Source: a virus. From it: 64,000 nt of DNA. The notes beneath the pieces were generated by a model. That model saw only the letters and a program-made list of their open reading frames with translations. It ran no database searches and was not told the origin of the DNA. Within the stretch, counting starts at the first letter, position 1, and each line of letters opens with the position of its first letter. Of the stretch, positions 2,216 through 57,743 are shown piece by piece. The stretch spans positions 32,001-96,000 of the IMG/VR virus record IMGVR_UViG_3300032053_000011; one strand, written 5' to 3'. Position numbers and translations under genes: made by a program.

Positions 2216-3073
2216 ATGGCGTATCCCGACCAGAGCACGTTCAACGACGCAGCCCCGCTTTCTGCGTGGTGGCGGGAATCGATCCCAGGCCACACCTGGA
2301 TCCATGCTGGAAGTGGGCGCGGCCTGATCATGGCCATCCAGGGGGCCCTGGTCGATCACATGCCGACCGGGCAACTGTTCGGGTTCCCGGATCCGCATCT
2401 CTTCGACCAAGGCAACGTCTGGGGCGGATTTTCGCCTGTTCGGCCCGTCCTCATCAGCAAGCCGGGTGGCTCCGAAGGCATTGTCACGTCGATTCCGTAC
2501 ATCGGTGGGATCGTCCGGCACCTCTTCCACCCGTTCCAGATCGATGGTGCGTTCGGGCCCGACACGATGGCGCTGCTTTGGAACTTTGCGAGCGGCATGG
2601 GTCCCCGGCACCTGGATGAACGCGGGATCTTGCTGCCCGCGGACTACGAGGCGGAGGGCCTGTGGAGGACGGCGCAATTGCCCGGGGCTGCTGGCGCGCG
2701 CGCCATGCCCTTCTTCCCTGACCTCGCCACGAGCATCGCTCAGGACCTCGTCGCAGGCCGCGTGGGACCGGACACGATGCGCTATGCCCTGTTCCTGGCC
2801 TACGGACCCTACAGTCGTCATCCCACGCCGAACCTCGTTCACCCGGGCCAGATCGACATCCCGCCGGATGCCATCATGCCTGCATGGGAACGCGCAGCAC
2901 CCTACGAGACGCGACCTGGGTACGTCGCTCGGTGGGAGCTGGGCAATGAACCGATCCCCGCCGGGCCTCCCACCAATGCTGGGACGACGCCAGCACCGAA
3001 CACTGCGCGCTTCGTGATCGGCACGGCGGCCCTGGCAGCGGCGGTATTCTGGCTGGTGCGGCGCGCGCTGTGA
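2216..3073 (+). CDS. Hypothetical protein with C-terminal membrane anchor (possible virion/membrane protein)
   Basis: 285 aa; Pro/Thr linker then FVIGTAALAAAVFWLVRRAL. Confidence 0.65.
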   Translation: MAYPDQSTFNDAAPLSAWWRESIPGHTWIHAGSGRGLIMAIQGALVDHMPTGQLFGFPDPHLFDQGNVWGGFSPVRPVLISKPGGSEGIVTSIPYIGGIVRHLFHPFQIDGAFGPDTMALLWNFASGMGPRHLDERGILLPADYEAEGLWRTAQLPGAAGARAMPFFPDLATSIAQDLVAGRVGPDTMRYALFLAYGPYSRHPTPNLVHPGQIDIPPDAIMPAWERAAPYETRPGYVARWELGNEPIPAGPPTNAGTTPAPNTARFVIGTAALAAAVFWLVRRAL

Positions 3074-3495
3074 GTTGGAGCGCGATCGCAAGCGCCGTGC
3101 GAGTAGGGCATCTGCCGCTGGATCTGGCCATCTGGGCAGAGGGTCCCGACGCCGCGCGCGCGTGGGCTGACCTCCTATTTGCCGCGCGCCTTGATGTATT
3201 GGTCCTTCTGCCGGGAACTCCAGCCAAGTTCTACGAGCAGGTCTGCGCCGCCATCCGTCTGGCCTCGAATCCTGACCCGGCTGTTCGGCGCGGCTACAGG
3301 GCTAGCGACTTTGACTTCCTCCTGAACGAAGACGGAACACATCTCTCGCTCCAATTCCTACACGAAATGTTGCACGCCCGATTTATCAGGGGCTCATGCA
3401 GGGGCTCATGGGCATTGGTGAATGCGGCAGTTCCTCACGTCTATCCGGCGCCTACGATCGGTGAGCTTGTCGAAGCCGCTGAATGGCGACAATGA
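3070..3495 (+). CDS. Variable-core paralog family member (divergent subgroup)
   Basis: LPLDLAIWA near the N-terminus and PAPTIGELV at the C-terminus; tandem paralog of the next gene. Confidence 0.6.
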   Translation: MSWSAIASAVRVGHLPLDLAIWAEGPDAARAWADLLFAARLDVLVLLPGTPAKFYEQVCAAIRLASNPDPAVRRGYRASDFDFLLNEDGTHLSLQFLHEMLHARFIRGSCRGSWALVNAAVPHVYPAPTIGELVEAAEWRQ

Positions 3496-4118
3496 GTCTG
3501 AGCGATGCCGACGGCGCGCGGTTGTGGAACGAGATCGCCCAAGCCATAGAGGCTGGCGCTTTGCCGTTGCATCTCGCGATCTGGGCGGACTCCGCCGAGG
3601 CAGTCCGCGCGTGGGATCGACTTCCGAGCGGCTACCGCGCGGACGTGATCGTCCTGCTGCCCAATGCCTTCGAAGTCGTTCGCGCCCACCTCCGGGCCCT
3701 GTTGCCGAGCATGCGCTGTCGCGGCCATCAAAAGCGGACGCTCGATGACCTGCTCGACGAAGCCGATACCATCCTCGAGACGCCGAGGATCTCATCCGAG
3801 CAAGTCGCACGCATGCTCCAGCTCGAAGGCCGGGCCATCAGTCTAATGGCCGCCGCGCGAGACGCCCAGATCGTTCGCGAGAACCGCCGAGGCTATCGCG
3901 AGACCGCTGAGAGCGTCACCATCCTCAGCGATCTGGAGATCCTGCGCACAGTCTGGATCGCACTCGAGGACTACGCGATCGCATCAGAAAGTCCATCGAA
4001 GTATCAAACGGCGAGGAACTTGCGCACCGTCCTCGCGACGCTGGTGGTGCATCTGGCCATCGACCCAGCTCCTTCGACGGCTGATCTAGTAGCGGCTGCC
4101 GACTTCTGGCGCCGGTGA
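3492..4118 (+). CDS. Variable-core paralog family member (divergent subgroup)
   Basis: LPLHLAIWA...AW...R.DV.VLLP and C-terminal PAPSTADLV; ATGA overlap with the previous gene. Confidence 0.6.
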   Translation: MSLSDADGARLWNEIAQAIEAGALPLHLAIWADSAEAVRAWDRLPSGYRADVIVLLPNAFEVVRAHLRALLPSMRCRGHQKRTLDDLLDEADTILETPRISSEQVARMLQLEGRAISLMAAARDAQIVRENRRGYRETAESVTILSDLEILRTVWIALEDYAIASESPSKYQTARNLRTVLATLVVHLAIDPAPSTADLVAAADFWRR

Positions 4119-4493
4119 TTCCATCAGCACTGCCGCCACCGTGAATCTGATCAGCGCATTCAGGCCGTCGTGACCGCCAACCCGCTCGGCATCGGTCCAC
4201 CAGGACTCCCGATGGGCCTGTTCGGCGCAGACGTCGAGCACCACCGTCGCAGTGCGTGCCAGCGCTGTATCGACGAGGTGATGAAGCGTGTCCATGGTCA
4301 GTCCGAGCATCTGCGCGATCTTCCGAGCGAGGAAAGCATCGAGCGGCGCCGTTCCCCGTTCAATGCGTGAGATCAGGCTCTGGCTGGCGCCCACGTTGCT
4401 CGCAAGTTCCAACTGAGACAACGCGCTCGTCGCGCGGCGTTGCGCCAGGATTGCGCCCAGGACACGCACTCGAACGTCCTCGAGATCAGTCAC
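4086..4493 (-). CDS. XRE-family helix-turn-helix regulator
   Basis: LSQLELASNVGASQSLISRIERG; GTG 4493 overlaps the stop of the GHKL gene. Confidence 0.8.
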   Translation of the reverse strand: MTDLEDVRVRVLGAILAQRRATSALSQLELASNVGASQSLISRIERGTAPLDAFLARKIAQMLGLTMDTLHHLVDTALARTATVVLDVCAEQAHRESWWTDAERVGGHDGLNALIRFTVAAVLMESPAPEVGSRY

Positions 4494-6619
4494 GGCAGCG
4501 GCGCCCAGAGCCGCTGGTACGTTGCGCGATCCACCTCGGTCCGCCACCGATGACCATTCCAACAGACGATCGCCGGATGCATCGGCAAGGCGTTGATCTC
4601 TTGATCCCCGTTGTACAGATCCAACCAGCGCTGCTCGCCAACCTGCGGCATGCCCGGATCCAGCGCGAAGTATTCGCAGCTCATGTGACGCGCCCAAGCG
4701 ATTGCGGTGCCAATGCTCCTCGGCGGTGGCAGTGCCGGGATCTCGTCCTCTTCGGGCTCTTCCTCCCGCATTCGAATTGAAGCGGCGATGGCTCGGATCT
4801 TCCGGTATCCGTCGGCGCAACGCGCCACATTCCGAGTCATCGCGTCCGCGAACGATTGTTCGTGCGAAGAGAGCCGGTCGACCAGATGCGTGGCTTCGTG
4901 GATCGCCGCCGCGTACAGCCAGCGCAGATCCTCGTCGCGACTCGGCGCGAGCATCTCCCGCCGGGTCTTCGGATCACGGAACGGATTGAGCACCAGCCAG
5001 TCCGCTTGGCCTTCACGGACCGCCGCGGCGCCGTTCTCTTCGGAGAAGAGCCATCCGACGCCGTACTGCACCCTGGATCCGAGTTGGATCAGTACGTATC
5101 GGCACATCTCCGTCCAGGTCTTCAGGAGCTTCAGGACACGCGGCTTCATCGTCGCGGGCTCGAACCGGCGCGGCACTTTGAATCCGGCGATCTCCTGCAC
5201 GACGATCATATCCGGCTGCCACACGAGCTGCGCCATGGCAGCCTCGAGATGATCCTGGCCAAGGAACCTCCCTGACATCAGATGGGCTGCGGACTCGGGG
5301 GAGGCTTCGAATGTCCGCTCATCGCTCTCGCCACGCTGGCCGCGAGCGCGCTGAATACTGTCGAGCGTTTCCGCGATACGCGCCAAGCCATCCGGCGCGA
5401 TCACCATCGTCGCTGGCCCGGCAACGTGCGCTGGTCCCGTGGCGAGCAGGATTTCGGCCTCATCCCTGCCGGAGACCGCCGGGCCGGTGCCCTTGTAGAC
5501 CTTGCGGAAGACGTTCTGTTTCGTCTGGAGGGCAGACCGGGTCTCGACTGCCAGCTCGTTCTCGAACTTCCACATCGCGCTCAGAAGCTCGGCATCACGG
5601 AAGGCGTCGCGGTTCGAGGTGAGCAGTTCGATCGATGGGCGCAGCATCTCGCCGATCACGTTGCCTTTGATCACGCTGGGAATGTCTCGCGAGAACATGT
5701 ACAGGCCGCCGGTGCGAACGATCAGCAGCGGCCAGTCCGTTTCCACGTCGGAGAAAAACAGCTCGAGCTTGTCCGCGAGGGTCCGCAGGCGCTTCTTGGC
5801 CTTGAGCGCGGCCGATACCGGCTGGCCTTGCACCCAGAACCGTACGGCTGGGAGATAGCTTCGGCTCAGGAGGGTCGTGGCCGACACCCCATCGATTGCA
5901 TCCTGGGCGGCCATCAGCACTTCGACCCGGGTCCCTTCGCGATAGAATGGCGCTGGTTCGAAGTCCCACGAGTTGGCGACGCCTGCGGCAACCATGTCCC
6001 GGGAGTGAACGCGCCAGGAGAGCCAGGGCAGCAAAAGCAGTTCCTTCGCCTTGCCGAACCCGCCCATCGCGCCACGCGCGCCGACCTTGCTCGTCCCGTA
6101 GAACACCATGAACTTGTGTTCGAAGGCCTCGCGGTCCATCCCCGAGCCGTTGTCTTCGCAGATGATGCGAACGGTGCCATCAGGCTGCGGCTCGGTGGAC
6201 AGGCGGATCTCTGTTGCTCCTGCGTCGACGGAGTTCTGCACTGCCTCGCGCCACCACTTCGTGGGCCAGTCCGTGTACTCCTGCTTCACCCGCTTGAACG
6301 CCTCGGGATCGATCGCCATCATCTTCGGATTCGCGCGGGTCTTCGCGCGGACCGCGATCGCTTTCTGTCCATCTGGCAGGCTGCGCTCGCCGACCAGCGC
6401 GGCGTCACTGCGCAGCATCGCGGCGCGCAACAGATGGTAGGCGTACGTCCAGCTCTCGGCGATATAGATCCCGGGCTCACTCAGCGCGGATGCGACGGCG
6501 GCCGGGTCCTCCACGATCTGCACAAGCTCCGGCTCCAGCTCGCTCAGGGCGAGGTTCGGGCGCAGGCCGCGCGGGTCTTTCTCGCGACCCCTGATGCGGA
6601 CGTCTTGGAGTTTCGACAT
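4490..6619 (-). CDS. GHKL (HATPase_c, Hsp90/MORC-like) ATPase with C-terminal HExxH zincin-like domain
   Basis: Bergerat motifs REAVQNSVDA, EDNGSGM, GGFGKA and GTRV; C-terminal IHEATHLVDRLSSHEQSF. Start at ATG 6619 or GTG 6637. Confidence 0.8.
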   Translation of the reverse strand: MSKLQDVRIRGREKDPRGLRPNLALSELEPELVQIVEDPAAVASALSEPGIYIAESWTYAYHLLRAAMLRSDAALVGERSLPDGQKAIAVRAKTRANPKMMAIDPEAFKRVKQEYTDWPTKWWREAVQNSVDAGATEIRLSTEPQPDGTVRIICEDNGSGMDREAFEHKFMVFYGTSKVGARGAMGGFGKAKELLLLPWLSWRVHSRDMVAAGVANSWDFEPAPFYREGTRVEVLMAAQDAIDGVSATTLLSRSYLPAVRFWVQGQPVSAALKAKKRLRTLADKLELFFSDVETDWPLLIVRTGGLYMFSRDIPSVIKGNVIGEMLRPSIELLTSNRDAFRDAELLSAMWKFENELAVETRSALQTKQNVFRKVYKGTGPAVSGRDEAEILLATGPAHVAGPATMVIAPDGLARIAETLDSIQRARGQRGESDERTFEASPESAAHLMSGRFLGQDHLEAAMAQLVWQPDMIVVQEIAGFKVPRRFEPATMKPRVLKLLKTWTEMCRYVLIQLGSRVQYGVGWLFSEENGAAAVREGQADWLVLNPFRDPKTRREMLAPSRDEDLRWLYAAAIHEATHLVDRLSSHEQSFADAMTRNVARCADGYRKIRAIAASIRMREEEPEEDEIPALPPPRSIGTAIAWARHMSCEYFALDPGMPQVGEQRWLDLYNGDQEINALPMHPAIVCWNGHRWRTEVDRATYQRLWAPLP

Positions 6620-6663
6620 GGTCGGAAGTTCTACCACGATCGGCCCTGTGGCATCATGGGCCG

Positions 6664-7758
6664 ATGAACCTCACGTTGCTGAACAAATCCAACCAGCCGC
6701 ACCACATCTATTGGATGATCCTGGGGACCGACCCGCTCACCAACGCCTGCTCGTACGTGCGCGCGAACGGCGCCATCGAGAAGTGCGAGATCGGTGACGA
6801 CTGCAAGCTCTATCAGCACGTGCTTGGCAAGAAGGCGACGTTGCCGTTCCCGCCGTTGATCTCGGCGCGCATCATCTTCACGATCGGCGCGCCCTTGCAG
6901 ATCAAGATCGTGAAGGACGGCAACGGCAATCCGGCCGTCCAGGACGCGGTCTTCTTCCTGCCGAGCGATCCGAACTACCTGCGCGTGTACGACAAGGTCG
7001 AGTACTCGCTGCCGACGTCGCCGCTCAATCAGATCTGGGCGAACAACACCAACGTGGACTTCTTCGGGATCCCGACCGAAGTGGCGATCGCTGACAAGAA
7101 CGGCCACACGCAGAGCACATCCCCGCTGTCCGGCACGCGGGACGCGCTCTTCGCAGCCTTCGCGGCCACGCCCGGCTTCGAATGCTTGGCGGTCACCCAC
7201 GGGACATCGAACGTCCGCGTGATCGCGCCGGGGTACTCGCCCGACTTCGACGCCAACTACTTCGACTCGTACGTGGCGTTGTGCTGGAAGAAGTACGCGA
7301 GCGAGTCGCTCGACCTCGCGCTGACGGGAGCACCGGCTGGATTCACGACCGCCATCGGCATGGTGGATGGCTCGGATGTCTTCCAGTTCGTCGACAACAA
7401 GGGCAACGCGTACGCGATCAACATGCCGAGCTCCTCGGACGTGTTCCTGTGCAACGGCGCGTTCAACATCAATGGATCACTGCCGCCGCTCGAGCAGCAG
7501 GTCGACGGCATCATCAAGCGGCAGATCGGCGCCGCGCTGAATCGCTCGGTGCTGACGGATGATGTTGGTGCGTTCTGCACGCTCGGCGGATTCTATCAAC
7601 AGCCGATCACGAACAAGTACTCAGCTCTGCTGCACGAGAGTTTCAAGGGCGGTCTCTGTTACGGGTTCCCCTACGACGACGTCTGCAACAAGTTCAGCTC
7701 CACGCTGAGCCTGACGCACTTCGCCTCGATGATCGTCACCGTCGGTGCGATGGCCTAG
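6664..7758 (+). CDS. GH64-family beta-1,3-glucanase (thaumatin-like fold)
   Basis: Motifs SARI.F, DPNY...YDKVEYS, NNTNVDFFGIP, AALNRS, FY...TNKYSALLH and YGFPYDDV. Confidence 0.85.
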   Translation: MNLTLLNKSNQPHHIYWMILGTDPLTNACSYVRANGAIEKCEIGDDCKLYQHVLGKKATLPFPPLISARIIFTIGAPLQIKIVKDGNGNPAVQDAVFFLPSDPNYLRVYDKVEYSLPTSPLNQIWANNTNVDFFGIPTEVAIADKNGHTQSTSPLSGTRDALFAAFAATPGFECLAVTHGTSNVRVIAPGYSPDFDANYFDSYVALCWKKYASESLDLALTGAPAGFTTAIGMVDGSDVFQFVDNKGNAYAINMPSSSDVFLCNGAFNINGSLPPLEQQVDGIIKRQIGAALNRSVLTDDVGAFCTLGGFYQQPITNKYSALLHESFKGGLCYGFPYDDVCNKFSSTLSLTHFASMIVTVGAMA

Positions 7759-8257: not shown

Positions 8258-8272
8258 GGCTGGCCTATCCGC

Positions 8273-8881
8273 CTATCCGCGGTTCGCATTGACGACGTCA
8301 GCTAGAATATCCCGGTGCGCGAGTTGTGCGCGTACGATGTCCGCAAGCGCTGGCAAGCTCAAGGTCTCATGCGTACGTCCTGCCGCCGCGATGCTGGTAT
8401 CGATCGCTTCGTCGAGTTCCTCGCCGACCGTGGTGGAAACCACGAGAGCTGCCTCAGAGGCCGTACGAGTCGCATGTCGCGAAATGAGATCCTCGAAAGA
8501 CCCGTCGGCCGCAACGGAAGCGTCTTCAGCAGCGACGCGCACGTCCCAGATGCCAACAGAAGTGTCGCCAGCCGCATAGCGGCTGGCGATATCGATCGCT
8601 ATCCAGGCTTTCTCGTGTGCATGTGCATTCGCTGCATAAGGCAGGGCAGCTTTAGCGATGGCGAGAGCGGCGCGCGCATACTCGGCATGCGGCGTAGCTC
8701 GCGAGGCGATTCTCAACAGATCATTTGGATTGCGGCTTGTGGCCCATGCTCTCGCGAATTCCTCGGCGTGCGCGACGGCCCAATGCAGTGGGATAGGCTC
8801 CATATCGCATAGGTATTTGAGTACTTCTTCCAGGCGCAGTCGGAGCTGCAATCCTACAGAGAACTCGCGCGGGTGGCTCAC
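8273..8881 (-). CDS. Variable-core paralog family member, Imm5-like Ala-rich helical protein
   Basis: PIPLHWAVAHA...AW; C-terminus ADIVRAQLAHRDILADVVNANR nearly identical to the next gene; GTG 8881 overlap. Confidence 0.65.
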   Translation of the reverse strand: MSHPREFSVGLQLRLRLEEVLKYLCDMEPIPLHWAVAHAEEFARAWATSRNPNDLLRIASRATPHAEYARAALAIAKAALPYAANAHAHEKAWIAIDIASRYAAGDTSVGIWDVRVAAEDASVAADGSFEDLISRHATRTASEAALVVSTTVGEELDEAIDTSIAAAGRTHETLSLPALADIVRAQLAHRDILADVVNANRG

Positions 8882-9501
8882 AGCGCCGACCGGTTCGCAT
8901 TCACGACATCGGCCAGAATGTCGCGGTGCGCGAGTTGCGCGCGTACGATGTTCGCCATGCCATCCCAGATCGCGACGCGGTCCGCCCGAGTGCGAGCTGT
9001 CGTGGAACTGAGCCAAACGGCCTCGACAGCGGCCTCCGCAGAACTCACGGCGGAATCCGCAGCATCGTATGAATCCACCGCCAGCGCGAGGAAGGCAGCA
9101 TCCCCCGCCGCCCTGGCAACTTCACGTGAGATGCCTCCGCGGTCGGTCACGGCATCCGCCGTGTCGTTGCATGCCTCCCGTACGTCATCGGCTGATGCTT
9201 CCCCACGTGCCCATGCTTCAGCGATGTCGATCGCTTTCTCGGGTCGATCGTCGTAGGCGCTGGGCAGAGCCTTCTTCGCGATGGCGGATGCCGCGAGCAC
9301 CAGTGCTGGCCGGGGCACTGCGAATGCTGCGATCTTCAAGAGCAGACTCGCATGGCCACTGCGAGCCCAGGCATGTGAGAATTCTGTCGCGTGCTCGACA
9401 GCCCAGGACAGCGGAATTGGATCGCCAGTGCTGAGATGGCTGATGGTAGCCTCGAGAATCAGTTCGTCTTGCTCGTCTCGCTCGAGCTTCTGTCGGCTCA
9501 T
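8878..9501 (-). CDS. Variable-core paralog family member, Imm5-like
   Basis: PIPLSWAVEHA...AW; DDRPEKAIDIAEAWARGEAS resembles the Imm5-like signature D.RP..AI..A.AW.RGE. Confidence 0.7.
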   Translation of the reverse strand: MSRQKLERDEQDELILEATISHLSTGDPIPLSWAVEHATEFSHAWARSGHASLLLKIAAFAVPRPALVLAASAIAKKALPSAYDDRPEKAIDIAEAWARGEASADDVREACNDTADAVTDRGGISREVARAAGDAAFLALAVDSYDAADSAVSSAEAAVEAVWLSSTTARTRADRVAIWDGMANIVRAQLAHRDILADVVNANRSAL

Positions 9502-13403: not shown

Positions 13404-13886
13404 TCAGCCGAAGTGCAGGCGCGGGCGCCGCTTATTTTCGGCCCATTCAAGCCAAGCGCCCCACGAAATGACCGTGAACGTACCGTTGGCAACATCGTAG
13501 AGCACGGTTGGATCGTACGTCTCACCGGTGTTCACATAGAGCGCTGCCGGTCGGCTGCTGGAATTGTCGAGGCTGACAACGCCATGGAATCCCATCAGAG
13601 CGTTCACCTCCTCGAGATATCTCTCCGCTACATCATCGTCCATGACTGGCTGCTCTGGCGGCATGGCCACCAGCAGGACCAATCGCGGCAACATCGCAGG
13701 GTCGGTGAACCGTGCCGATCTGGATCGCACAAGCCGGAGTGCGCCGTCGAGCATCGAGAAATCGATGCGCGGACCTGCATCGGACTCGATGGCGCTCATC
13801 AATGCCACCACGGTCGCCAGATCGAACTTGTCAGCGTGGGCTCTCACGAACTCGTCGAGTCGACGCCGCTCTCTTGCTCGATTCAT
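13404..13886 (-). CDS. Phage hypothetical protein
   Basis: C-terminal YVNTGETYDPTVLYD...SWGAWLE motif; overlap-coupled. Confidence 0.6.
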   Translation of the reverse strand: MNRARERRRLDEFVRAHADKFDLATVVALMSAIESDAGPRIDFSMLDGALRLVRSRSARFTDPAMLPRLVLLVAMPPEQPVMDDDVAERYLEEVNALMGFHGVVSLDNSSSRPAALYVNTGETYDPTVLYDVANGTFTVISWGAWLEWAENKRRPRLHFG

Positions 13887-14476
13887 CGACGCCCCTCGAT
13901 CACTGTGAGCATTTCAGAGAGGCTCGGCTCTGGGCGGATGGCGCTGCGCATCGCATCGCAAACCTCCGGCATGACGTCGCTCTCGTTTCGGCGAGTGAGC
14001 ACCGCGATTGCTCGCGCGACTCTGATGGCCATCCCGGCGCAGACATCCTGCGAATCGCTCATCGCATGCCGAGGACCGAGCATGTTCATGGTCGCACTCT
14101 CGACCGCGTCCATGTACTGCTGAATGGCACCGCGCTCGACGACAAGCACATTCTCCTCCGACTCACTCAGGCGCGTCGCGCGACGAAGGAGGTCGGCTAC
14201 CCGCATGCGCCATTGCGACTCTCGCTGATGGATCCAGGCGCCCCGGGCCAAGACTGCCTGCGCGATCGCACTGAACTGCTCGAGGGAAACCGGACGTCCC
14301 AAGCCAGCGTGGACAACAGCGAGGATGGCATACGGATCGGTGGACGCTCGCCAAGCTGCGGTCACCGGGTCGATCCGGCCGCCGTCCGAATATTCGACTG
14401 CCCAGGCAAGCGGCGGGGCAGTGCCTTCCCGGAAGAAGTCCAGAATGTCGTCGAGACTGCGGGATGGACGGTTCAC
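13883..14476 (-). CDS. Variable-core paralog family member (tandem array, last of four)
   Basis: APPLAWAVEYSDGGRIDPVTAAW ... DAMRSAIRPEPSLSEML. Confidence 0.7.
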   Translation of the reverse strand: MNRPSRSLDDILDFFREGTAPPLAWAVEYSDGGRIDPVTAAWRASTDPYAILAVVHAGLGRPVSLEQFSAIAQAVLARGAWIHQRESQWRMRVADLLRRATRLSESEENVLVVERGAIQQYMDAVESATMNMLGPRHAMSDSQDVCAGMAIRVARAIAVLTRRNESDVMPEVCDAMRSAIRPEPSLSEMLTVIEGRR

Positions 14477-14991
14477 GCTGGACCGCGCTCGATCCGCGCA
14501 AGAAGCTCTGACATCATGAGCGGAGGTATCTGAGCACGGATTTCATCGGCGACTCTCTGACGTGATTGCAGAGACTTACCATCGCCATCGAACAACCACC
14601 CGATCGTTTCTGTCATCAGTTGGACCAGCCAGTATACGCGTATCTCGCCGCGAGTAACGTCAGGAAGTTGATCAAGAGCGGCTCGATAGCGACCAATGGC
14701 TTTGGTCAGGGTGGCTCCTTTCCGGCCCTCCCGGATAGCTCTCATGAGAGTCGCATGGCCGAGTTCGATGAGTGCCAGCATCACTCCATGCAGTGCAGAT
14801 GGGCGGAGGTGTTCCAAGAGATCAGCCATGTGCGCTGGCTCGACAGAGTCGATCCAGGCCGCGCTTACGGGATCGATCTGTCCGCCTCTGGACCGCGTGA
14901 CTACCCATGCCAGCGGCGGAGCCGTTCCGTCCTGCGCAAAGGTCAAGACCTCCCGGATTGGGTCCTGACTCGTCGATACAGCTTTGCTCAT
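14473..14991 (-). CDS. Variable-core paralog family member (tandem array, third of four)
   Basis: APPLAWVVTRSRGGQIDPVSAAW ... ADEIRAQIPPLMMSELLARIERG. Confidence 0.7.
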   Translation of the reverse strand: MSKAVSTSQDPIREVLTFAQDGTAPPLAWVVTRSRGGQIDPVSAAWIDSVEPAHMADLLEHLRPSALHGVMLALIELGHATLMRAIREGRKGATLTKAIGRYRAALDQLPDVTRGEIRVYWLVQLMTETIGWLFDGDGKSLQSRQRVADEIRAQIPPLMMSELLARIERGPA

Positions 14992-15542
14992 GCCGAACCA
15001 CGCTCGATCCGCGCGATCAGCTCCGGGAACGTCGGCGGCACGACCTGAGAGCGGATGGCGTTGGCAACAGCGTGGTGCGCCGCCGGGGCATGGGCGATTC
15101 CTTCAGTCGCCATTCCGATGGCGTTCGCCACTTCACTGACTGACCAGTGAATAGCGTCGCGCCTGCCTTCTGGCTTGAAGACTGGGTCCACCATCACTTG
15201 TGCGCGCTCGATGGCAGATAGATATTCCTTCGAGGCTCTCGCCAATGATTTTGGCAGTCGTATCGGATCACCCAAACGAAGCACATCGGTCACCTCTTTT
15301 ATGTGCTTTATCCACACGAAACTACCGAGCTCGAGAACTGCCTGCATCGCACGACGTAATTCGACTTCGTCCTGACGAAGAACATCAAGAAGTCTTGTCA
15401 TGACGAAAACGTGTGCTGACGCATTCCAGACCGCTGTAACCGGATCTTGGCCGTCTGCCGAATGTTCGATTGCCCATCGCAACGGCGGAGCGACGCCTTC
15501 GTTCAGCCACTCGTATAGCTCGCCGATAGGGTCGGGTGTCAT
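14988..15542 (-). CDS. Variable-core paralog family member (tandem array, second of four)
   Basis: APPLRWAIEHSADGQDPVTAVW ... ANAIRSQVVPPTFPELIARIERG; ATG 15542 overlap. Confidence 0.7.
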   Translation of the reverse strand: MTPDPIGELYEWLNEGVAPPLRWAIEHSADGQDPVTAVWNASAHVFVMTRLLDVLRQDEVELRRAMQAVLELGSFVWIKHIKEVTDVLRLGDPIRLPKSLARASKEYLSAIERAQVMVDPVFKPEGRRDAIHWSVSEVANAIGMATEGIAHAPAAHHAVANAIRSQVVPPTFPELIARIERGSA

Positions 15543-16195
15543 CGATGCGGCCGTTCGATCCACGCCAGGAATTCAGCATATGTCGGTGCTGGGACATGCG
15601 CGCGAATGACATCGGAGACGATGCGATGCGCTTCGAGATCCTCGGCATGTCCAGCAGGACCTGCCAAGCCGATCGCCTGAGCAACGTGATCAACTGCCCA
15701 CATCGCTGCACCAATAGGATGCTTCTCGCCGCCGATCAATGGCTCGCGAATCGACAGTGCCGCACCGGCACGTAACGAGTCGCTATACAGACGAATGGCC
15801 GCTTCCAGCGCTGATTCTCGATCTCGAAGTTTCGGAGACTCCCCGATGAGCATGGCTCGAATGACTTGGTCTGGAAAGGTGCCCTCGTCATTCCAAACGA
15901 ATCTGCCAACTTCGAATACTGATGCGACGAGATGGATGAGATCGGCACGACCGTCCGGCGTGTCGTTCTGTTCTCGTAACCAGTAAAAGACAAGGTTGAT
16001 CATCATTCCAGGCTTGAGCGATGCCGCCCAAATCGCATTCACAGGATCAACCTGTCCACCTCGTGACCATTCAATTGCCCATGCCAATGGCGGGATAGTA
16101 TGCGTAGTCCAGAAAACATAGAGCTGATCGATCGGATCTTTTCGCAGGGACAGCCGTTCATCGGTCTTGCCCTGGCTCAGACGCTTCTTGCTCAC
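15539..16195 (-). CDS. Variable-core paralog family member (tandem array, first of four)
   Basis: IPPLAWAIEWSRGGQVDPVNAIW ... SDVIRAHVPAPTYAEFLAWIER; GTG 16195 overlap. Confidence 0.7.
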   Translation of the reverse strand: MSKKRLSQGKTDERLSLRKDPIDQLYVFWTTHTIPPLAWAIEWSRGGQVDPVNAIWAASLKPGMMINLVFYWLREQNDTPDGRADLIHLVASVFEVGRFVWNDEGTFPDQVIRAMLIGESPKLRDRESALEAAIRLYSDSLRAGAALSIREPLIGGEKHPIGAAMWAVDHVAQAIGLAGPAGHAEDLEAHRIVSDVIRAHVPAPTYAEFLAWIERPHR

Positions 16196-16926
16196 GTGCG
16201 CCCCATCGCCCACAGGCCGATGCGTCCGGTCCCGAGGGCAAGTGCATGCCCGCCGCTGATCCTGCCCCGAGTACTCGCGATGGCGGGGCCGGTCGAATGC
16301 GACGTCGACCCGCGTACCGTGATCCACTCCGCGACGGCGCGATTCTCGGGATGTCCGATGCGGCTGCCGCCCCGACTCACCAGCGACGTCGAGCCACCAC
16401 CGTCGAGATAGACCGCGAACTTCGCGCGCCGCTGCCGTAGGGCCTCTGCGAACTCGTGCATGGTGCCATGGCCCACCGCCACGAACAGCCGCCCATCATC
16501 GAGAATGCCGAGTGCGGCGCGCCAGACGCTGCTCGTGTTCACCGCGGTACTGGCATCGTTGCGGCCATTCCAGACCAGCGTCGGGTATCCCTGCACCGCG
16601 ATGCTGGCTGTCTCCGGGAAATGATTCCCGAGCATGGCGACTGCGGGTTGTCCTGGAACGACCGAGATGGTGGCGCCACGGGTGGGGTACCGTCCGGTGA
16701 TGGCGATGTCGCGCGCGCGGTCCAGCAGGAAGTAGTCTGGCGATCCGCATGGCTCTGGTGAGCACGCCGAATACATCGGTCCGTCGATGGCGATCTGGAT
16801 GTCGCCGCCGATCTGTAGCGCTTCGGCCGCACGAATCCGTCGAGCGTCGGTGCTCGAGATGGGGACCGAGGCCGTACCGAGCTGTGACGGTGCGAATGGA
16901 ATGAGGGTGACTTCGGTAGCGGCCAT
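16192..16926 (-). CDS. Phosphodiester glycosidase (NAGPA/DUF2233-like) family protein
   Basis: QGYPTLV, WRAALGILDDGRL, AVYLDGGGSTSL, NRAV. Confidence 0.75.
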   Translation of the reverse strand: MAATEVTLIPFAPSQLGTASVPISSTDARRIRAAEALQIGGDIQIAIDGPMYSACSPEPCGSPDYFLLDRARDIAITGRYPTRGATISVVPGQPAVAMLGNHFPETASIAVQGYPTLVWNGRNDASTAVNTSSVWRAALGILDDGRLFVAVGHGTMHEFAEALRQRRAKFAVYLDGGGSTSLVSRGGSRIGHPENRAVAEWITVRGSTSHSTGPAIASTRGRISGGHALALGTGRIGLWAMGRT

Positions 16927-44455: not shown

Positions 44456-44486
44456 CGCGTTTTTACGCGCGGGGCAGAAGCGCTTC

Positions 44487-44515
44487 TTGACGATACGCTA
44501 GCCAGACGCTAGCGT
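44487..44515 (+). promoter_or_regulatory. Leaderless sigma70-like promoter with perfect box
   Basis: TTGACG-17-TAGCGT-7 nt-ATG 44523; box GCTAGC CAGAC GCTAGC. Confidence 0.75.
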
Positions 44516-44522
44516 GCGCTCG

Positions 44523-45113
44523 ATGGTGCACCCGAAAGAGGCTGCTGCGAGACAGGCGATCCGCTTCACGGACGAGCCGTTGATGGAGCTCGCGCTGAAG
44601 CTTGCGGGCGGTCTTTCACTACTGCCGTGGTTCGTGAACCACGCTGCAAGTGGCCCCGAGGCGATCGCGGTCTATTGGAGCTGTTCGCGGGATCCTGTGA
44701 GCATGACGTTGGTGCTGGCGATCGTTGATCGGAGTGCCCTGTCCGACGCTCTCAGGTCGCTCAAGACACGGATCGTGCCCGGCCCTCCAGGCGCCGACTA
44801 CATAGCATTCGGCATGACGTGGCAAGACGGGCCGGATTACACCAAGCCTATCCAGGGTGGTGGCTGGTTCCACGACATTCTGGTGCACCTCGACTGCGCC
44901 ATCCTGGGCCTCGCGTTCTGGACGTTCCGCAAAAATTACGAGCACCTCATTGATCTCGCACTCAACGCGGCGATCATGACCGGTGCGATTGAGGGCACCT
45001 GCCCGGGGCCGCAGCACGAATGCGTGGCGGCTGCCCTGTGCGAAGAGCTGCGCCGGGCGATGCCGGTGCTCAGTCCTGAGCGTATCCTCGCAATCGGTGG
45101 AGAAGATCAATGA
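44523..45113 (+). CDS. Variable-core paralog family member (divergent)
   Basis: LLPWFVNHAASGPEAIAVYWSCSRDPVSM ... CEELRRAMP. Confidence 0.6.
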   Translation: MVHPKEAAARQAIRFTDEPLMELALKLAGGLSLLPWFVNHAASGPEAIAVYWSCSRDPVSMTLVLAIVDRSALSDALRSLKTRIVPGPPGADYIAFGMTWQDGPDYTKPIQGGGWFHDILVHLDCAILGLAFWTFRKNYEHLIDLALNAAIMTGAIEGTCPGPQHECVAAALCEELRRAMPVLSPERILAIGGEDQ

Positions 45114-45541
45114 CGGCGTACTTCGACAATCTTGGTTCCGCACTGCTTCAAGCGCGAGAGCTCGAGGGCGACCTGAAGCTCGACAATCGGCTACGCGAGA
45201 TTGAAGAGGGTCTCGTCTACGACGTGACGTTGTGTTTCGAGTCGCCCGGCTTTCCGGCCGACCTGCGCGAGCGTGGGCATCGCATCATCCTGAAACACGG
45301 TGTACATACTCGGCCACTCAACGATGCGACCCATCCCACGGTGGATTCGCTGTACGACGCATTCAGGGCTGTCGCGCAGATGGGTTCCGATCTGCACGAC
45401 CTGTTTCACGCCGTGTGCCGCCGCGAGACCGATGAAGGTCTGGTCGGGTTCAGCGATGACCCGCGCTCGCCGATGCGTGTTCTTGCGTGCCGTGGCGAGG
45501 AGTTCCGCGAAAACCTCGCGGCCGAAGCGAAGCCCGCATGA
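45110..45541 (+). CDS. Hypothetical protein
   Basis: Overlap-coupled on both sides. Confidence 0.55.
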   Translation: MTAYFDNLGSALLQARELEGDLKLDNRLREIEEGLVYDVTLCFESPGFPADLRERGHRIILKHGVHTRPLNDATHPTVDSLYDAFRAVAQMGSDLHDLFHAVCRRETDEGLVGFSDDPRSPMRVLACRGEEFRENLAAEAKPA

Positions 45542-46194
45542 TCGACACCGATCCGTTCGTCGACTCGTTGACCGATCTGCTCGTCGGGATCGACGAGGAC
45601 GGATATCCACCACTCGCATGGGTGGTCCGCTGGAGCGACGGCGGGCGCGATCCGGTGCATGCAGCATGGGAGGCGGCAGAGTCGCCGCATGCAATGGTGA
45701 AGGTCGTCCGCCTTGGATGGGGTGATCGCGCGATCCCCTTGAAGGCGACTATGGTCGCCACATTCCAAGCGGTCTCCGACGGCGTAACGGAAGTTCTGCC
45801 ACCGGGTGGATGGCCCGCGAAGTCACCGCCACAACCGCCGCGCAAGGTGCGGCAGCGTCGACAGATGACCGGCGCCGAGTTCGTACGCGGCGCGCAGCGG
45901 TACCTATCATCGACGGCATCGACGGCGGCGCTGTTCCCTCCACCTCTTCCCGGTGCTGCTGCGGATATCACATGGAGCCTGCCGGGGATCGCAGGCCGCT
46001 CAAGTCATGGTCCCACGCGTCTCCGGTACATGGATTCCGCTGGTGAGAAGTGGTTCGAGCGCGTCCACCGTGACTACCAAGACGCGCGCGAGCGGCTCCA
46101 GTATCGCGTGGCAGTCGCCAAGATCCGCCGCGAGTGCCCTGTGCCGCCGACGCTGGAAGAGCTATTGCGCAGAGCTAGCACAGTGCTAACGTAA
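45538..46194 (+). CDS. Variable-core paralog family member
   Basis: YPPLAWVVRWSDGGRDPVHAAWEAAESPHAM ... AKIRRECPVPPTLEELL. Confidence 0.7.
   Translation: MIDTDPFVDSLTDLLVGIDEDGYPPLAWVVRWSDGGRDPVHAAWEAAESPHAMVKVVRLGWGDRAIPLKATMVATFQAVSDGVTEVLPPGGWPAKSPPQPPRKVRQRRQMTGAEFVRGAQRYLSSTASTAALFPPPLPGAAADITWSLPGIAGRSSHGPTRLRYMDSAGEKWFERVHRDYQDARERLQYRVAVAKIRRECPVPPTLEELLRRASTVLT
46165..46192 (+). promoter_or_regulatory. sigma70-like promoter with box, inside the 3' end of the preceding gene
   Basis: TTGCGC-16-TAACGT; box GCTAGC ACAGT GCTAAC. Confidence 0.6.
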
Positions 46195-49195: not shown

Positions 49196-49247
49196 ATGCG
49201 ATAATCGCATCAAAGTCTTGCCAATTCTTCTGGACCGCTGATAAGTC
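49196..49247 (+). promoter_or_regulatory. Palindromic operator and promoter ahead of the replication operon
   Basis: ATGCGAT A ATCGCAT (49196-49210), TTGCCA (49218-49223), -10-like TAAGTC, ATG 49254. Confidence 0.5.
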
Positions 49248-49253
49248 TCGTTC

Positions 49254-52663: not shown

Positions 52664-54069
52664 CTCTGCAATCGATCCGCACCAACAAACCGGCTGAATT
52701 GGCTGTTCTCGGTGATGCGATGGCGCACAAGGGTGCCATCGCGATCCTGAAAGGAATCCTCGGCATAGAGGACTTCTACTGGCCCGAGAACAGTACCATC
52801 TGGGCAGCAATGGTCGCGCTCGAAGAGCGCGGAGTAAGCATTGACCCGGTCACTATTGCCGACGAACTACGAACGATTCGTCGGCTGAATACGGTCAGTG
52901 GTCTCGTCGACATCGAGACACTGAAGTACCACGCCGGACGGGACATCGATGCTGTGGAATCCCATGCCCGCATCGTGGCTGGCCTCGCGATGGCGCGCCG
53001 CATCGAGTCCACTGCGCAGTCCATCGCAGCGCTCGCCCTCGATCCGTCCATCGCCGTGCCGGACTTCGCCGACCGCGCGATCACAGCATTATCTGAGGCC
53101 ACCAAACAGCGGGATGTACGGGCGCCCGCAGCGATGATCGACATGGCTGAAGATCTTACGAAGCGCATCGAGCAACAAGCAGATGCTCCAGAAGGCATCA
53201 CCGGTGTTCCTTCCGGGCTTACTCAACTCGATGCCATCACGTCTGGTCTTCAGCCCGGGACGCTCGTGATCGTCGCGGCGAGACCAGCGATGGGAAAATC
53301 CAGCCTCGCGACGAAGTTGGTGAAGGCCTGCGCGGAACGCAACAACTCAGGCAACAAGGCCTCGCTGCTGTTCTCTCTCGAGATGCCCAACAAAGAGCAG
53401 TTCGAACGCATCGCTTGTGAGCAGGCCTCGATCGATGCGAAGAAGATCAAACGGCGGCAGTTGACTTCGGACGATATGACAGGGCTCACCAGCGCTTTGA
53501 ACTACGTCGCAACGTTGCCGATTTTCATCGACGATGACTCGTCCGTGACCCCGCAGGACCTGCGCGCCCGCGCTCTACGGCAGCATTCACGCACGCCGCT
53601 CGGCCTGATCGCCATCGACTATCTCCAGCTCATCATGCCTCCGCGCACGATGGGGCGCGACACACGTGAACGACAGGTTACCGTCATCGCCGAAGCGCTC
53701 AAGGCGCTGGCCAAAGAATTGAATATTCCGGTCGTTGCCCTCGCACAACTGAATCGATCACTTGAGGAACGGCCAGACAAGCGACCGCGGCTTTCAGATC
53801 TCCGCGAGAGCGGAGGACTGGAGCAATCCGCCGACCTCGTGCTCTTCATCTATCGGGACGACTACTACAATAAGGACTCGGCCGACAAAGGCATCGCCGA
53901 ACTCATTGTTGCGAAGCAGCGCGGCGGCGATACGAGCACAGCCTATGCGCGATGGATCGCAACGCTGACGCGCTTTCAGGATCTATCAGACGAGGAACTC
54001 GAAGAACTCGATAATCGCAAGGCGGCGCCAAATAACGTCGTGCCAATGCGGCCAAGGAACAGAGCATGA
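52660..54069 (+). CDS. dnaB: Replicative DNA helicase DnaB
   Basis: N-terminal domain (EDFY, IDPVT), AARPAMGKS, FSLEM, IDYLQL, LAQLNR, RP.LSDLRESGGLEQSAD, AKQRGG. Confidence 0.95.
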   Translation: MTLQSIRTNKPAELAVLGDAMAHKGAIAILKGILGIEDFYWPENSTIWAAMVALEERGVSIDPVTIADELRTIRRLNTVSGLVDIETLKYHAGRDIDAVESHARIVAGLAMARRIESTAQSIAALALDPSIAVPDFADRAITALSEATKQRDVRAPAAMIDMAEDLTKRIEQQADAPEGITGVPSGLTQLDAITSGLQPGTLVIVAARPAMGKSSLATKLVKACAERNNSGNKASLLFSLEMPNKEQFERIACEQASIDAKKIKRRQLTSDDMTGLTSALNYVATLPIFIDDDSSVTPQDLRARALRQHSRTPLGLIAIDYLQLIMPPRTMGRDTRERQVTVIAEALKALAKELNIPVVALAQLNRSLEERPDKRPRLSDLRESGGLEQSADLVLFIYRDDYYNKDSADKGIAELIVAKQRGGDTSTAYARWIATLTRFQDLSDEELEELDNRKAAPNNVVPMRPRNRA

Positions 54070-54079
54070 GGGCAAGATC

Positions 54080-54940
54080 GTGAACGACAAATCGCAGTAT
54101 GGTGCATCAGACACGCCGGATGGCATCACCGGGATTCCATCCGGCCTCCGCCAGCTCGACAACATCACCGGTGGCTTCCAGCCAGGAACGCTCATCCTCG
54201 TCGCGGCGAAGTCAGCGATGGGCAAGAGCAGCTTTGGAACAAAGCTCGTGAGAAAGTGCGCGGAACGCACCAACGATGGCAAGAGCGCGTCGCTGCTATT
54301 CTCCATCGAGATGACAGGGGAAGAGCAGCACCTGCGCATTGTTTGCGAGGCAGCGTCGGTCGACGCGATGAGTATCAGGCGTGGCGACACAAGCGCACGG
54401 GCGTCGATGTTGGGCGCGGCGCGCTACGTCGCCACGTTGCCGATCTTCATCGACGACAATTCGTCCGTGACGCCGCAAGATCTCCGCGCACGTGCTCTTC
54501 TCCAGGACGCGCGCACGCCGCTCGGTCTGATCGTGATCGACAACCTCCATCTGATCCGTCCGCCGCGCACGATGAGCCAGAATACGATTGCCGAATCGCT
54601 CAAGGCGCTCGGCAAAGAACTCAACATCCCGATCGTCGCGCTCACACATTTGAATCGGTTCCAGGAGGACAGGCCGAACAGGCGTCCGGGGCTCTCGGAT
54701 CTGCCCGGTGACCTCGAGCAGTCCGCCGACGTCGTCATCTTCATCCACCGCGATGACTATGATGACAAGCATTCGTCAAACAAAGGCATCACCGAACTGA
54801 TCGTTGCGAAGCATCGCGGTGGCGAGACGAGCACCGCCTATGCGCGCTGGATCCCGACGCTGACGCGTTTTCAGGACCTCACCGACGAGGAGCTTGAGGA
54901 CATCGATACGAGCAGGTCAGCACGGAGGGGTTCGACATGA
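54080..54940 (+). CDS. Degenerate second copy of the DnaB C-terminal ATPase domain
   Basis: Closely parallels the preceding gene, with AAKSAMGKS, IDNLHL, LTHLNR and LSDLPGDLEQ; no N-terminal domain. Confidence 0.8.
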   Translation: MNDKSQYGASDTPDGITGIPSGLRQLDNITGGFQPGTLILVAAKSAMGKSSFGTKLVRKCAERTNDGKSASLLFSIEMTGEEQHLRIVCEAASVDAMSIRRGDTSARASMLGAARYVATLPIFIDDNSSVTPQDLRARALLQDARTPLGLIVIDNLHLIRPPRTMSQNTIAESLKALGKELNIPIVALTHLNRFQEDRPNRRPGLSDLPGDLEQSADVVIFIHRDDYDDKHSSNKGITELIVAKHRGGETSTAYARWIPTLTRFQDLTDEELEDIDTSRSARRGST

Positions 54941-55725: not shown

Positions 55726-56113
55726 GGGATCCATGGGCGGCAGCACGTACGTTTCGAGTTATGACGAGTGGCTCCAGCGCCAGAAGACCTCCAAGACCAC
55801 GCTGTCGTTCCTCTGGGCGGCTCGCATCTCGGCGACGGTCAGCGATGTTGCGGCGCCGCTCGTGCTGGCCGAGACGCTGTACCTCGCATTCGCCGACGTG
55901 GCTGTGGTGCGGCCCGAAGACAAGGAGCTCTTCAGTTTCTTCTGCGCGGCATCTTCGGAGTTCGCGCTCGAGGGCCGCGAGGCCGATTGCGCACGGATGC
56001 TGGTGCAGGCCCAGAAGCTCTCGGGACATGCCATGAGTTGGCTGCGCGCTGGCTGCGCGGCGATCCGCACCGAGATGGCTCGGCGCGGCGTGGCGCATCC
56101 GCGGGACTGACTG

Positions 56114-56635: not shown

Positions 56636-56643
56636 ACCGACTC

Positions 56644-56672
56644 TTCCTGTGTGGCTAGCAGCATGCAATACT
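56644..56672 (+). promoter_or_regulatory. Leaderless promoter with box variant
   Basis: TTCCTG-17-AATACT-7 nt-ATG 56680; box GCTAGC AGCAT GCAATA. Confidence 0.55.
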
Positions 56673-56679
56673 CCGAACC

Positions 56680-57138
56680 ATGGCTCTGACGAAAAAACAG
56701 GCACACGACAAGATCTGCACTGATGGACTGCTGATGGGCGGGCAGATGCGGGCGTATAATGGCCTGTGGTCCCATGGTCCCATCACCGCGACCGGGCTCA
56801 GTAGAGCTATGCAGACGGAGCACGACAAGATCGAAGGACACCCCTGCTACCACAAGCGCCTCGCAGATCTGGAGAAGCGTGGATTGGTGTCGCGATCGGA
56901 GAATTCTGATCCAGCGCAACGTCGCCACGGAAAGGTGTGGAGCATCATCCCGGGCCAGTTGCCAGGGCCGATGCCGCCAGCCACAAAGGGTCCGCCGAAG
57001 CCGACCAGCGACGAGCTGAGGCTTTACAACGCGATCGTCGATGACCTCGCACGGAAGGGGAGGAAGGGCGGCTCCCACGGCGGTGCGTTCGAGAAGACTC
57101 GAGCGTGGTTGAAGTCTGGCGCTCGCCCGTCGAAGTGA
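56680..57138 (+). CDS. Winged-helix DNA-binding protein
   Basis: HGPITATGL...HKRLADLEKRGLV.R....VW. Confidence 0.6.
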   Translation: MALTKKQAHDKICTDGLLMGGQMRAYNGLWSHGPITATGLSRAMQTEHDKIEGHPCYHKRLADLEKRGLVSRSENSDPAQRRHGKVWSIIPGQLPGPMPPATKGPPKPTSDELRLYNAIVDDLARKGRKGGSHGGAFEKTRAWLKSGARPSK

Positions 57139-57743
57139 TAGTGGAAATGGACGAGGACGAGGACGACATGGCCCGATGCGGAGTCTTTCACCGGATCATC
57201 GCTGAGGAGTCGAGAGGTCCGCGCGGTGGTGCCATCACGCACTATCAGGCGGAGTGCATCGGCTGCGGTCGCAAGACGGATCCAATCCGAATCACATCGG
57301 ATTCAATGGGCCGCGAGCGGAGCCTTGCCGCGCTTCACGAACACCAGTGCCCGACGCCACCAGTGGTCTCCGCGCAAGGTCTTCTGCTGAACGGCCTCGC
57401 GAAGTACATCGAGGATGAAGAGCCGATCCCTCTGACCTTCGCCATCGAACACTTCGGCGACCGCACGCCGGAAGATGCGCTGCGGCTGGCATGGAGCAAG
57501 TGTGTTGAGGGACACGCGCTCGGCGCGTTGATGTATGCGCTCCGCCAGAAAGTCTCGTGCGAATCGGCACCGCGCTACAGCCAGGATCGCGCAACGACGT
57601 TCGTCTCGTTCAACTGCGGCAACGTGTCGTATCAGTTGCGTGGGACCGACGCCAACGTCGCCGATGCGGTCCGTGGAATCGTCGATGCGGAAAAACTGAT
57701 CGCTGGGACCCTGCGCCGGTGCTTCAAACCGGCCGTGGGATAG
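57135..57743 (+). CDS. Zn-ribbon fused to a divergent variable-core family domain
   Basis: CIGC...HQC then PIPLTFAIEHF....AW..C ... ADAVRGIV. Confidence 0.5.
   Translation: MIVEMDEDEDDMARCGVFHRIIAEESRGPRGGAITHYQAECIGCGRKTDPIRITSDSMGRERSLAALHEHQCPTPPVVSAQGLLLNGLAKYIEDEEPIPLTFAIEHFGDRTPEDALRLAWSKCVEGHALGALMYALRQKVSCESAPRYSQDRATTFVSFNCGNVSYQLRGTDANVADAVRGIVDAEKLIAGTLRRCFKPAVG

Follow-up and report, generated by a model that had tools for sequence, protein, structure and literature searches.

The virus record IMGVR_UViG_3300032053_000011 is linear, 137,514 bp long, 93% complete by CheckV and has a GC content of ~63%. We analysed bases 32001-96000 of this record, a stretch of 64,000 nt hereafter called the window, in which 11 genes on both strands encode small proteins that share an N-terminal and a C-terminal sequence box (N-box and C-box) and differ in the part between. 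An earlier note on this DNA, made from the letters alone, had placed these genes in one family of about 11 members. All 11 open reading frames (ORFs) were found where the note had put them and, on the evidence given below, all belong to one superfamily. A profile search of the whole record, with 1716 six-frame ORFs of at least 50 aa each as the search set, showed that the family is larger: it comprises 28 ORFs with 16,530 nt in total, or 12.0% of the record, and 17 of the 28 lie outside the window (genome 1.5-14.8 kb, 23.5 kb and 115.4 kb). As single-family expansions in phage-like genomes go, this is one of the larger ones. Within the window, jackhmmer searches of the whole-record ORFs found no member beyond the 11.

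Members of the family and their layout

The members fall into three subgroups, A, B and C, and are named here by the first position of their genes. Profile matches are given to A6, a profile of 149 rows that contains C-type and external sequences only. Subgroup A is represented in the window by an overlapping pair on the plus strand. The first gene (3070..3495) encodes 141 aa with the N-box HLPLDLAI...ARAW and the C-box PAPTIGELVEAAE, and was matched by A6 at E 0.095 (rank 15 of 1716); the second (3483..4118), which overlaps the first by 13 nt, encodes 211 aa with the N-box ALPLHLAI...VRAW and the C-box PAPSTADLVAAAD. The two genes of subgroup B are on the minus strand. Protein 8273 (8273..8824; ~183 aa, start uncertain) has the N-box PIPLHWAVAHAEEFARAW, an Ala-rich core and the C-box ADIVRAQLAHRDILADVVNANRG; it was found by A6 at E 3.6e-4 (rank 8) and joined at E 4e-14 on an iteration that drew in no decoy. 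Protein 8878 (8878..9501; 207 aa) carries an Imm5_like signature in its core (ALPSAYDDRPEKAIDIAEAWARGE).

Subgroup C includes an overlap-coupled quartet on the minus strand. Its first gene (15539..16213) is P0001 of the protein collection, which calls the product at 224 aa. It is followed by 14988..15563 (184-191 aa), where a start at the ATG of position 15542 would overlap the stop of the gene upstream as ATGA, by 14473..14991 (172 aa), which overlaps its neighbours by 4 nt on each side and has the orthologues P0019 and P0022, and by the final gene 13883..14476 (197 aa; A6 E 3e-22). Two further C genes lie on the plus strand: 44514..45113 (199 aa), a divergent member with the N-box LLPWFVNHAASGPEAIAVYWSCSRDP and the C-box LRRAMPVLSPERIL (A6 E 2.5e-8), and 45538..46194 (218 aa), which has the most canonical boxes, PPLAWVVRWSDGGRDPVHAAW and IRRECPVPPTLEELL (A6 E 7e-31). 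The consensus boxes of the earlier note fit the quartet and 45538 literally. Overlap coupling, also claimed there, was found for the quartet and for 3070/3483 but not for the B pair, whose genes are ~54 nt apart using the nearer start. The weakest and least certain member is 57105..57743 (plus strand; 212 aa), in which a Cys-rich N-terminal part of ~90 aa is fused to the boxes (N-box EPIPLTFAIEH...LRLAW; C-box-like end ADAVRGIV). It was matched by A6 at E 1.6e-3 (rank 11), and hhalign aligned it to subgroup B at E 1.4e-4 with a probability of 52%.

Outside the window, 13 head-to-tail genes occupy the minus strand at genome 7380-14770, mostly with 4-nt overlaps, and a C-type copy (genome 12824-13447) stands among the A-type copies of this array. 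Two more members lie at genome 1522-3008, and single members at genome 23462-24061 and genome 115446-116096. Two A members, L001:1522-2385 (-) and L002:3462-4061 (-), extend beyond the C-box, one with a hydrophobic tail of ~45 aa and the other with a Pro/Ser-rich extension of ~60 aa. The protein collection places the proteins of the record on a 247,125-bp contig, as against 137,514 bp for the virus record, and a further family member, P0016, is listed on a 247,125-bp contig and is absent from the record; thus the element may extend well beyond the virus record. Its host is probably myxobacterial (Myxococcota), judging from the few genome matches in that phylum together with the GC content.

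Conserved ends and a variable middle

Each subgroup has its own version of the two boxes. In subgroup A the N-box is IPLHLAV...AW (pattern G-x-[IVL]-P-L-H-L-A-[VI] ... L-A-x-A-W) and the C-box is GPPTLEEIVAAA (G-P-P-T-L-E-[EQ]-I-V-A-A-A). The corresponding boxes of subgroup B are IPLxWAVEHA (P-I-P-L-x-W-A-V-E-H-A ... A-W-A) and IVRAQLAHRDILADVV (I-V-R-A-Q-L-A-H-R-D-I-L-A-D-V-V), and those of subgroup C are PPLAWVVRWS-GG-DPVxAAW (P-P-L-A-W-[AV]-[VI] ... G-G-x-D-P-V-x-A-x-W) and IRxxVPxPPTLxELL ([IV]-R-x-x-[VI]-P-x-P-[TS]-x-x-E-[LF]-[LI]). Common to the family is an N-terminal unit of four short helices around G-x-x-P-L-x-[WL]-A-[VI] with a conserved A-W, and a C-terminal unit in which a helix that closes with [IV]-R is joined by a P-P-T loop to the last helix. 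The middle part varies in both length and sequence from copy to copy. The proteins are small, soluble and mildly acidic (isoelectric point mostly 4.8-6.9) and have no hydrophobic span; no catalytic motif, signal peptide or membrane span was found in the family proteins.

An alignment of 17 A members has a mean column identity of 19%. Besides the initiator Met only four of its columns are invariant (P, L, A and W), all of them in the N-box; the P of the C-box is nearly invariant, and the middle is unalignable. Between paralogues, identity is 37-48% in the N-box and 15-31% in the core, which bears out the earlier note, where a single family had been described whose ends are conserved and whose core is mostly not alignable by eye. 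The conserved residues are encoded by differing synonymous codons, there are no DNA repeats in the quartet, and the sole repeat at the DNA level belongs to the B pair, where 65 nt coding for the C-box (window 8280-8344 and 8891-8955) are 88% identical. The differing codons and the near-absence of DNA repeats indicate that the constraint acts on the protein. The 65-nt identity of the B pair is far above that of the rest of the two genes and could reflect gene conversion or a constraint at the nucleic-acid level.

Relationship between subgroups A, B and C

BLASTP among the 11 window proteins linked the members within each subgroup: 3070 and 3483 at E 3e-14 (A), 8273 and 8878 at E 7e-29 (B), and the quartet internally at E 1e-12 to 7e-20 and to 45538 at E 4e-6 to 8e-14 (C). 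Weaker links joined 13883 to 8878 (E 0.006), 57105 to 8878 (5e-4) and to 8273 (8e-5), and 44514 to 14988 (2e-4). Against the 1716 ORFs, jackhmmer retrieved 18 ORFs with each of the two A seeds and 5-7 ORFs with the C seeds, including 44514 and the C-type copy of the 13-gene array. Seeded with 44514 it retrieved six ORFs, with five C members at E 1e-14 to 1e-21; the B seeds found only each other and 57105 found only itself.

More distant relationships were revealed by the A6 profile. When it was run against the 1716 ORFs, seven C ORFs came on top, followed by nine ORFs of A, B and 57105 at E 3.6e-4 to 0.15, whose matches span both boxes; the first non-family ORF was at E 0.22. This enrichment in rank has a hypergeometric P of 9e-19, and with reversed decoys the first decoy appeared at rank 24 (E 0.72). 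Furthermore, P0016 combines A-type boxes with a C-type S-D-G-G-W-D loop; it was found by the A profile at E 5e-9 among 5.8e9 proteins and matched the C profile over its full length with 35.3 bits. Direct hhalign comparison of the subgroup profiles aligned the N-box only, in constant register, B with C at E 1.8e-4 and a probability of 49%. The hhalign probabilities are modest.

If A, B and C were instead separate families, with short helical motifs shared through convergence or composition, the weak hhalign scores between subgroup profiles (probability 3-50%), the isolation of B and 57105 in jackhmmer and the failure of iteration from C to reach A would be readily explained. However, such an origin would not account for an A6 enrichment that spans both boxes ahead of any decoy, for P0016 as a bridge between the A and C profiles, for a C-type copy inside an A array, or for the identical order and spacing of the helices at both ends of the A and C models described below, and we consider it very unlikely. 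Taken together, these comparisons give good support to A, B and C as one superfamily.

Structure models

The AlphaFold model of 14988 (C), made with the 149-row alignment, had a mean predicted local distance difference test score (pLDDT) of 89 and a predicted template modelling score of 0.81. It is all alpha with nine helices: four short ones in the N-box (12-22, 28-33, 41-48 and 52-63), four long ones (66-96, 105-125, 131-154 and 160-173) and a terminal helix (179-188) after the P-P-T loop. The model of 3483 (A), from a 20-row alignment, reached a pLDDT of 70 overall, with 81-97 at the N end, 81-94 at the C end and 34-57 in the core. Its helices 8-23, 29-35, 38-46 and 49-56, and then 171-190, a loop and 199-210, follow the same pattern at both ends as those of the C model. 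The shared end-helix pattern, together with an A model that is confident at the ends and not in the core, is in line with the proposal of the earlier note that the ends are a constant structural unit. We infer that the two ends form one small constant sub-domain; a contact between them is suggested by the 100-aa forms (see below), which must fold from little else.

Foldseek searches against PDB and BFVD gave no match at E<=1e-3. VIA-align matched the C core to talin, catenin and vinculin-type bundles (Z<=7.6) and the A core to HEAT/ARM-like pieces (Z<=6.9), in both cases in the middle part only. By sequence, the best PDB matches were at E 0.03-0.07. In the ESM Atlas, 14988 had only feature matches below 0.9 and matches with template modelling scores <0.6 to its own low-confidence model, and P0020 gave nothing usable.

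The Imm5_like core of subgroup B

The core of 8878 matched positions 31-86 of the PF21805 (Imm5_like) model at E 7.5e-5 with 23.1 bits, against a gathering cut-off of 25. A six-frame search of the whole record gave 23.8 bits for the same protein as the only match in the record, and the other 10 window members had no PF21805 match at E<=1. The Imm5-like call of the earlier note for 8878 was nevertheless borne out by its homologues. P0162 (E 2e-19) is a B homologue in which a PF21805 core stands between a B-type N-box and a B-type C-box, the B homologues P0162-P0165 all carry PF21805, P0163 also has PF14423, and the B profile matched PF21805 homologues at ~1e-6. By eye, P0163-P0165 have box-like ends (GAC..A..W...AW..C.RGDWLLW at the N end and IVR..IP at the C end). 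Canonical PF21805 proteins are present in five of 401 Myxococcota genomes, all of them without the boxes, which shows that the Imm5_like core is an independent module that in subgroup B lies between the two boxes. A sub-threshold match to CdiI (E 3.9e-4) was seen in another external member, P0098.

Zhang et al. 2012 (PMC3482391) list Imm5 as an immunity protein of mostly alpha structure that acts against DYW deaminase and CdiA-CT toxins, and they describe tandem polyimmunity loci without toxin genes. No mention of PF21805 or 'Imm5-like' was found in the literature searched.

Evolutionary mode

The earlier note had viewed the family as a diversified binder library. Rapid diversification is contradicted by the conservation of individual cores: between orthologues from other metagenomes the cores are 37-58% identical, compared with the 15-31% between paralogues. 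For 45538 and P0004 the identities of N-box, core and C-box are 66%, 52% and 77% respectively; for 14473 and P0019 they are 63%, 45% and 81%; for the member at genome 11716 and P0013, 60%, 54% and 54%; and for that at genome 10246 and P0015, 58% in all three parts. No reverse transcriptase (RVT_1) match was found in the record at E<=0.01. Since orthologues keep their cores and no reverse transcriptase was detected, the copies form an old, maintained repertoire rather than a fast diversifying or hypermutating one. Diversity-generating retroelement targets were considered and rejected on the same two grounds and on the absence of DNA repeats in the quartet. The spread of the family beyond phages also speaks against a rapidly diversified library.

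Relatives beyond the record

A word-indexed search returned seven external relatives for C and three for A, P0016 among the latter. With A3, a profile that combines C with short external forms, an exhaustive HMMER search among 1.84 billion raised the number to 331 representatives at E<=1e-3, of which 125 reached <=1e-10 and six <=1e-30. The external members are mostly 100-200 aa long (median 136 aa among the 148 matches listed), and those of ~100 aa contain little beyond the two boxes. A simple pattern recognized both boxes in 66 of the 148 matches listed; in these 66 the distance from the conserved W to the C-box is 11-159 residues (median 52), with four or more Cys in between in 13. In small cellular relatives the middle is reduced to ~30-40 residues, sometimes with four cysteines, and some external proteins or open frames contain two units in tandem. 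Many members of 100-120 aa (P0006, P0008, P0026, P0108, P0137 and others) have C-x2-4-C ... C-x2-C immediately ahead of the C-box, so that the minimal core may be a zinc site.

A genome scan identified two loci, one in a metagenome-assembled genome (MAG) of an uncultured Myxococcales (five matches) and one in Minicystis rosea DSM 24000 (two matches); in a Myxococcota sample, three of 301 genomes matched at E<=1e-4. The family is not phage-specific, because single copies occupy ordinary chromosomal places in Myxococcota. Their neighbourhoods are unrelated to each other and include histidine kinases (two loci), a type VI secretion system (T6SS) sheath gene, Stig1-like proteins and metabolic genes. 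The Minicystis rosea copy (L007 4395-5330, plus strand), which has an extra N-terminal domain of ~100 aa, is flanked on one side by the T6SS sheath gene (VipB, E 3e-119) and on the other by the gene of a Stig1-repeat protein, and a Stig1 protein is also near the copy in the Myxococcales MAG. One metagenomic copy is on a 136.7-kb contig amid small unannotated ORFs; this contig otherwise shares almost nothing with the record.

No described family in Pfam, NCBIfam, PHROGs or PADLOC covers A or C, in keeping with the earlier note, which had recognized no described system of this design. None of the 141 external matches scanned reached a Pfam cut-off, PHROGs gave no family for the 11 members and 45110, NCBIfam gave nothing relevant at E<=10 for 17 proteins, and PADLOC gave no family at E<=0.01 for the 11 window members, P0020, P0016 and P0162. 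Among other IMG/VR records there were 32 pattern matches with the C alignment, none confirmed. In GenBank phages, tblastn found no match with P0020 or 45538, and no DNA match was found for the quartet region. Two look-alikes were also considered. The TIGR02996 repeat-companion domain, which resembles PPLAWVVRWS-GG-DP, was ruled out, as its NCBIfam model was not matched at E<=10 by any of the 17 proteins, and an ankyrin reading of the N-box, where G-x-IPLHLAV resembles the ankyrin TPLHLA motif by eye, was ruled out by the lack of any Pfam Ank match at E<=1 in 12 proteins. Thus the family is uncatalogued, with 331 cluster representatives and a clear, testable architecture.

Possible function

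The family is real, unnamed and structurally coherent, and its function can be proposed only by inference and analogy. The explanation that we prefer, with a probability of roughly 0.4, is that a constant two-ended unit displays a variable middle and that the copies are non-enzymatic, stoichiometric binders or inhibitors. The middle part would be an insert displayed from the constant sub-domain built by both ends, and each copy would have its own target among the proteins of the host or of competitors, such as a defence protein or an interbacterial toxin, which it would block or hold in the manner of immunity proteins and phage counter-defence proteins. This reading is suggested by the lack of a catalytic motif, signal peptide or membrane span, by the mildly acidic character of the proteins, by their translational coupling in long operons that also hold accessory genes and by the conservation of individual copies in related elements. 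An immunity-like flavour of some members also favours it: the Imm5_like core of subgroup B, the sub-threshold CdiI match of P0098 and the T6SS sheath gene next to the Minicystis copy. A bolder version, in which the conserved termini clasp into a graft scaffold with unrelated middles inserted (a four-Cys knuckle, the Imm5_like module, a four-helix bundle and HEAT-like hairpins), and in which a myxobacterial phage has amplified a 28-member repertoire of specific inhibitors against the unusually rich toxin and defence arsenal of its social, predatory hosts, seems to us rather unlikely; if true, the family would be the phage equivalent of a polyimmunity locus, with a single split scaffold as its basis.

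Several results weigh against the binder reading. A Pfam scan that covered 119 other predicted proteins of the record (23 at E<=1e-3 and 96 at E<=1e-6) detected no toxin domain, and none was detected at E<=1e-4 among 34 neighbours of cellular and metagenomic copies, although distant toxins could be missed in both; the cellular copies also have no constant neighbour. The Imm5_like match is below threshold and confined to two of the 28 copies, and the B profile also draws an Ala-rich decoy at 2.9e-5. Alignment A7, which consists of the three Imm5_like proteins P0163-P0165, had no significant similarity in hhalign to A6 (E 0.094) or A2 (E 0.37), the profiles of C and A, with probabilities <1%. 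The A and C profiles were aligned at E 0.0015 with a probability of 17% and in the N-box only, and an iterative search from C with decoys gained 8273 and not A. The fold matches are generic helical ones within the noise range for helical models.

The main rival holds that the constant ends dock on one common partner, either a host hub (protease, RNA polymerase, secretion or packaging machine) or a phage enzyme, and that the middle recruits differing substrates. Such an adaptor would fit ends that are far better conserved than the middle over 28 copies and 331 external clusters, a copy number and tandem layout that resemble those of host-range families, and minimal cellular forms that are almost only ends, which must then serve some purpose in themselves. 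However, end conservation may only reflect the needs of folding, no candidate common partner was found and, as said, nothing constant adjoins the cellular copies; we therefore hold the adaptor for a minority possibility. Myxobacteria rely heavily on toxin-immunity kin discrimination, and the copies could alternatively be orphan immunity genes that shield the infected or lysogenic cell from the polymorphic toxins of its neighbours and have nothing to do with anti-phage defence. The Imm5_like core of subgroup B points in this direction, as do the weak CdiI fusion in P0098 and the T6SS adjacency in one genome, and tandem immunity genes without toxins are a layout described in PMC3482391. Yet the core occurs below threshold in only two of 28 copies, no toxin gene was seen near any copy in the loci examined, and a lytic large phage would gain little from such cargo (no integrase was seen, though no search was aimed at integrases), which makes this an unlikely explanation.

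We give similarly little credence to a regulatory or structural family without a binder repertoire, that is, small helical factors acting on transcription or in the virion that were duplicated and are drifting. Generic helical bundles as the best fold matches, histidine kinases and such regulators beside cellular copies at two loci and the four-Cys cores of some short forms are all compatible with it, but no DNA-binding, sigma or anti-sigma family was matched, and orthologues that keep their individual cores argue against drift and for separate roles that are maintained. Should the binder reading hold and the copies be specific inhibitors, 28 host targets would be indicated in Myxococcota, a phylum in which phage biology and defence systems have, to our knowledge, barely been explored, and protein engineers too would find the split constant scaffold of interest. 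For paralogues that are no more than structural or drifting, the value is limited to annotation.

Genomic context

The arrays lie within long same-strand operons that also contain accessory and replication genes; genes of the operons and the record include a GH64 glucanase, a GHKL ATPase, SLT, NAGPA, RNase H, RecT, RecE and three helicases. No capsid or terminase family was recognized in the record at the thresholds used. The glucanase gene (window 6664-7758, plus strand, opposite to its neighbours) encodes a full-length GH64 beta-1,3-glucanase (Pfam E 8e-62), an unusual cargo for a phage-like element, and we speculate that it is tied to predatory or fungus-associated myxobacterial hosts. Beside it, at window 4490-6637 (minus strand), a 715-aa protein has only a GHKL ATPase (HATPase_c_3) match near residues 131-184 and no PADLOC match. 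Two adjacent DnaB-like helicase genes are found at window 52660-54069 and 54080-54940 (both plus strand), the second without the N-terminal part, and the third helicase-like gene (window 19831-21471, minus strand) is of the KaiC/AAA_25 type.

Just upstream of the 13-gene array, L001:14819-15388 (minus strand, genome coordinates) encodes a 189-aa protein with a GmrSD_N (DUF262) match at E 9e-11 and PADLOC matches to NsnA (1e-9) and PD-T4-2_A (4e-5). These matches mark it as a fragment or relative of a defence-type nuclease, and it heads the array operon. Translation- and signalling-related cargo is represented by a peptide deformylase (L001:1001-1495, minus strand), a PTH2 peptidyl-tRNA hydrolase (L001:16619-16990, minus strand), a YggL 50S-binding protein (L003:6737-7183, plus strand) and a Ser/Thr protein kinase (L004:869-2443, plus strand).

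Relation to known systems

The B core matches the Imm5_like model and, like PF21805 and PF14423 (Imm5) proteins, is small, all-alpha, Ala-rich and of a kind often borne by phages. In contrast, subgroups A and C (25 of the 28 copies) have no PF21805 match, and no window protein reaches the cut-off. The arrays resemble the polyimmunity loci of polymorphic toxin systems in their tandem layout and differ from polymorphic toxin systems in having no toxin partner. F-box and poxvirus ankyrin/PRANC families combine a constant docking element with a variable target-binding part and are multi-copy host-range families. The present family has no sequence or fold relation to them and no ankyrin Pfam match; what it has in common with them is the design logic alone, with the constant element here split between the two termini.

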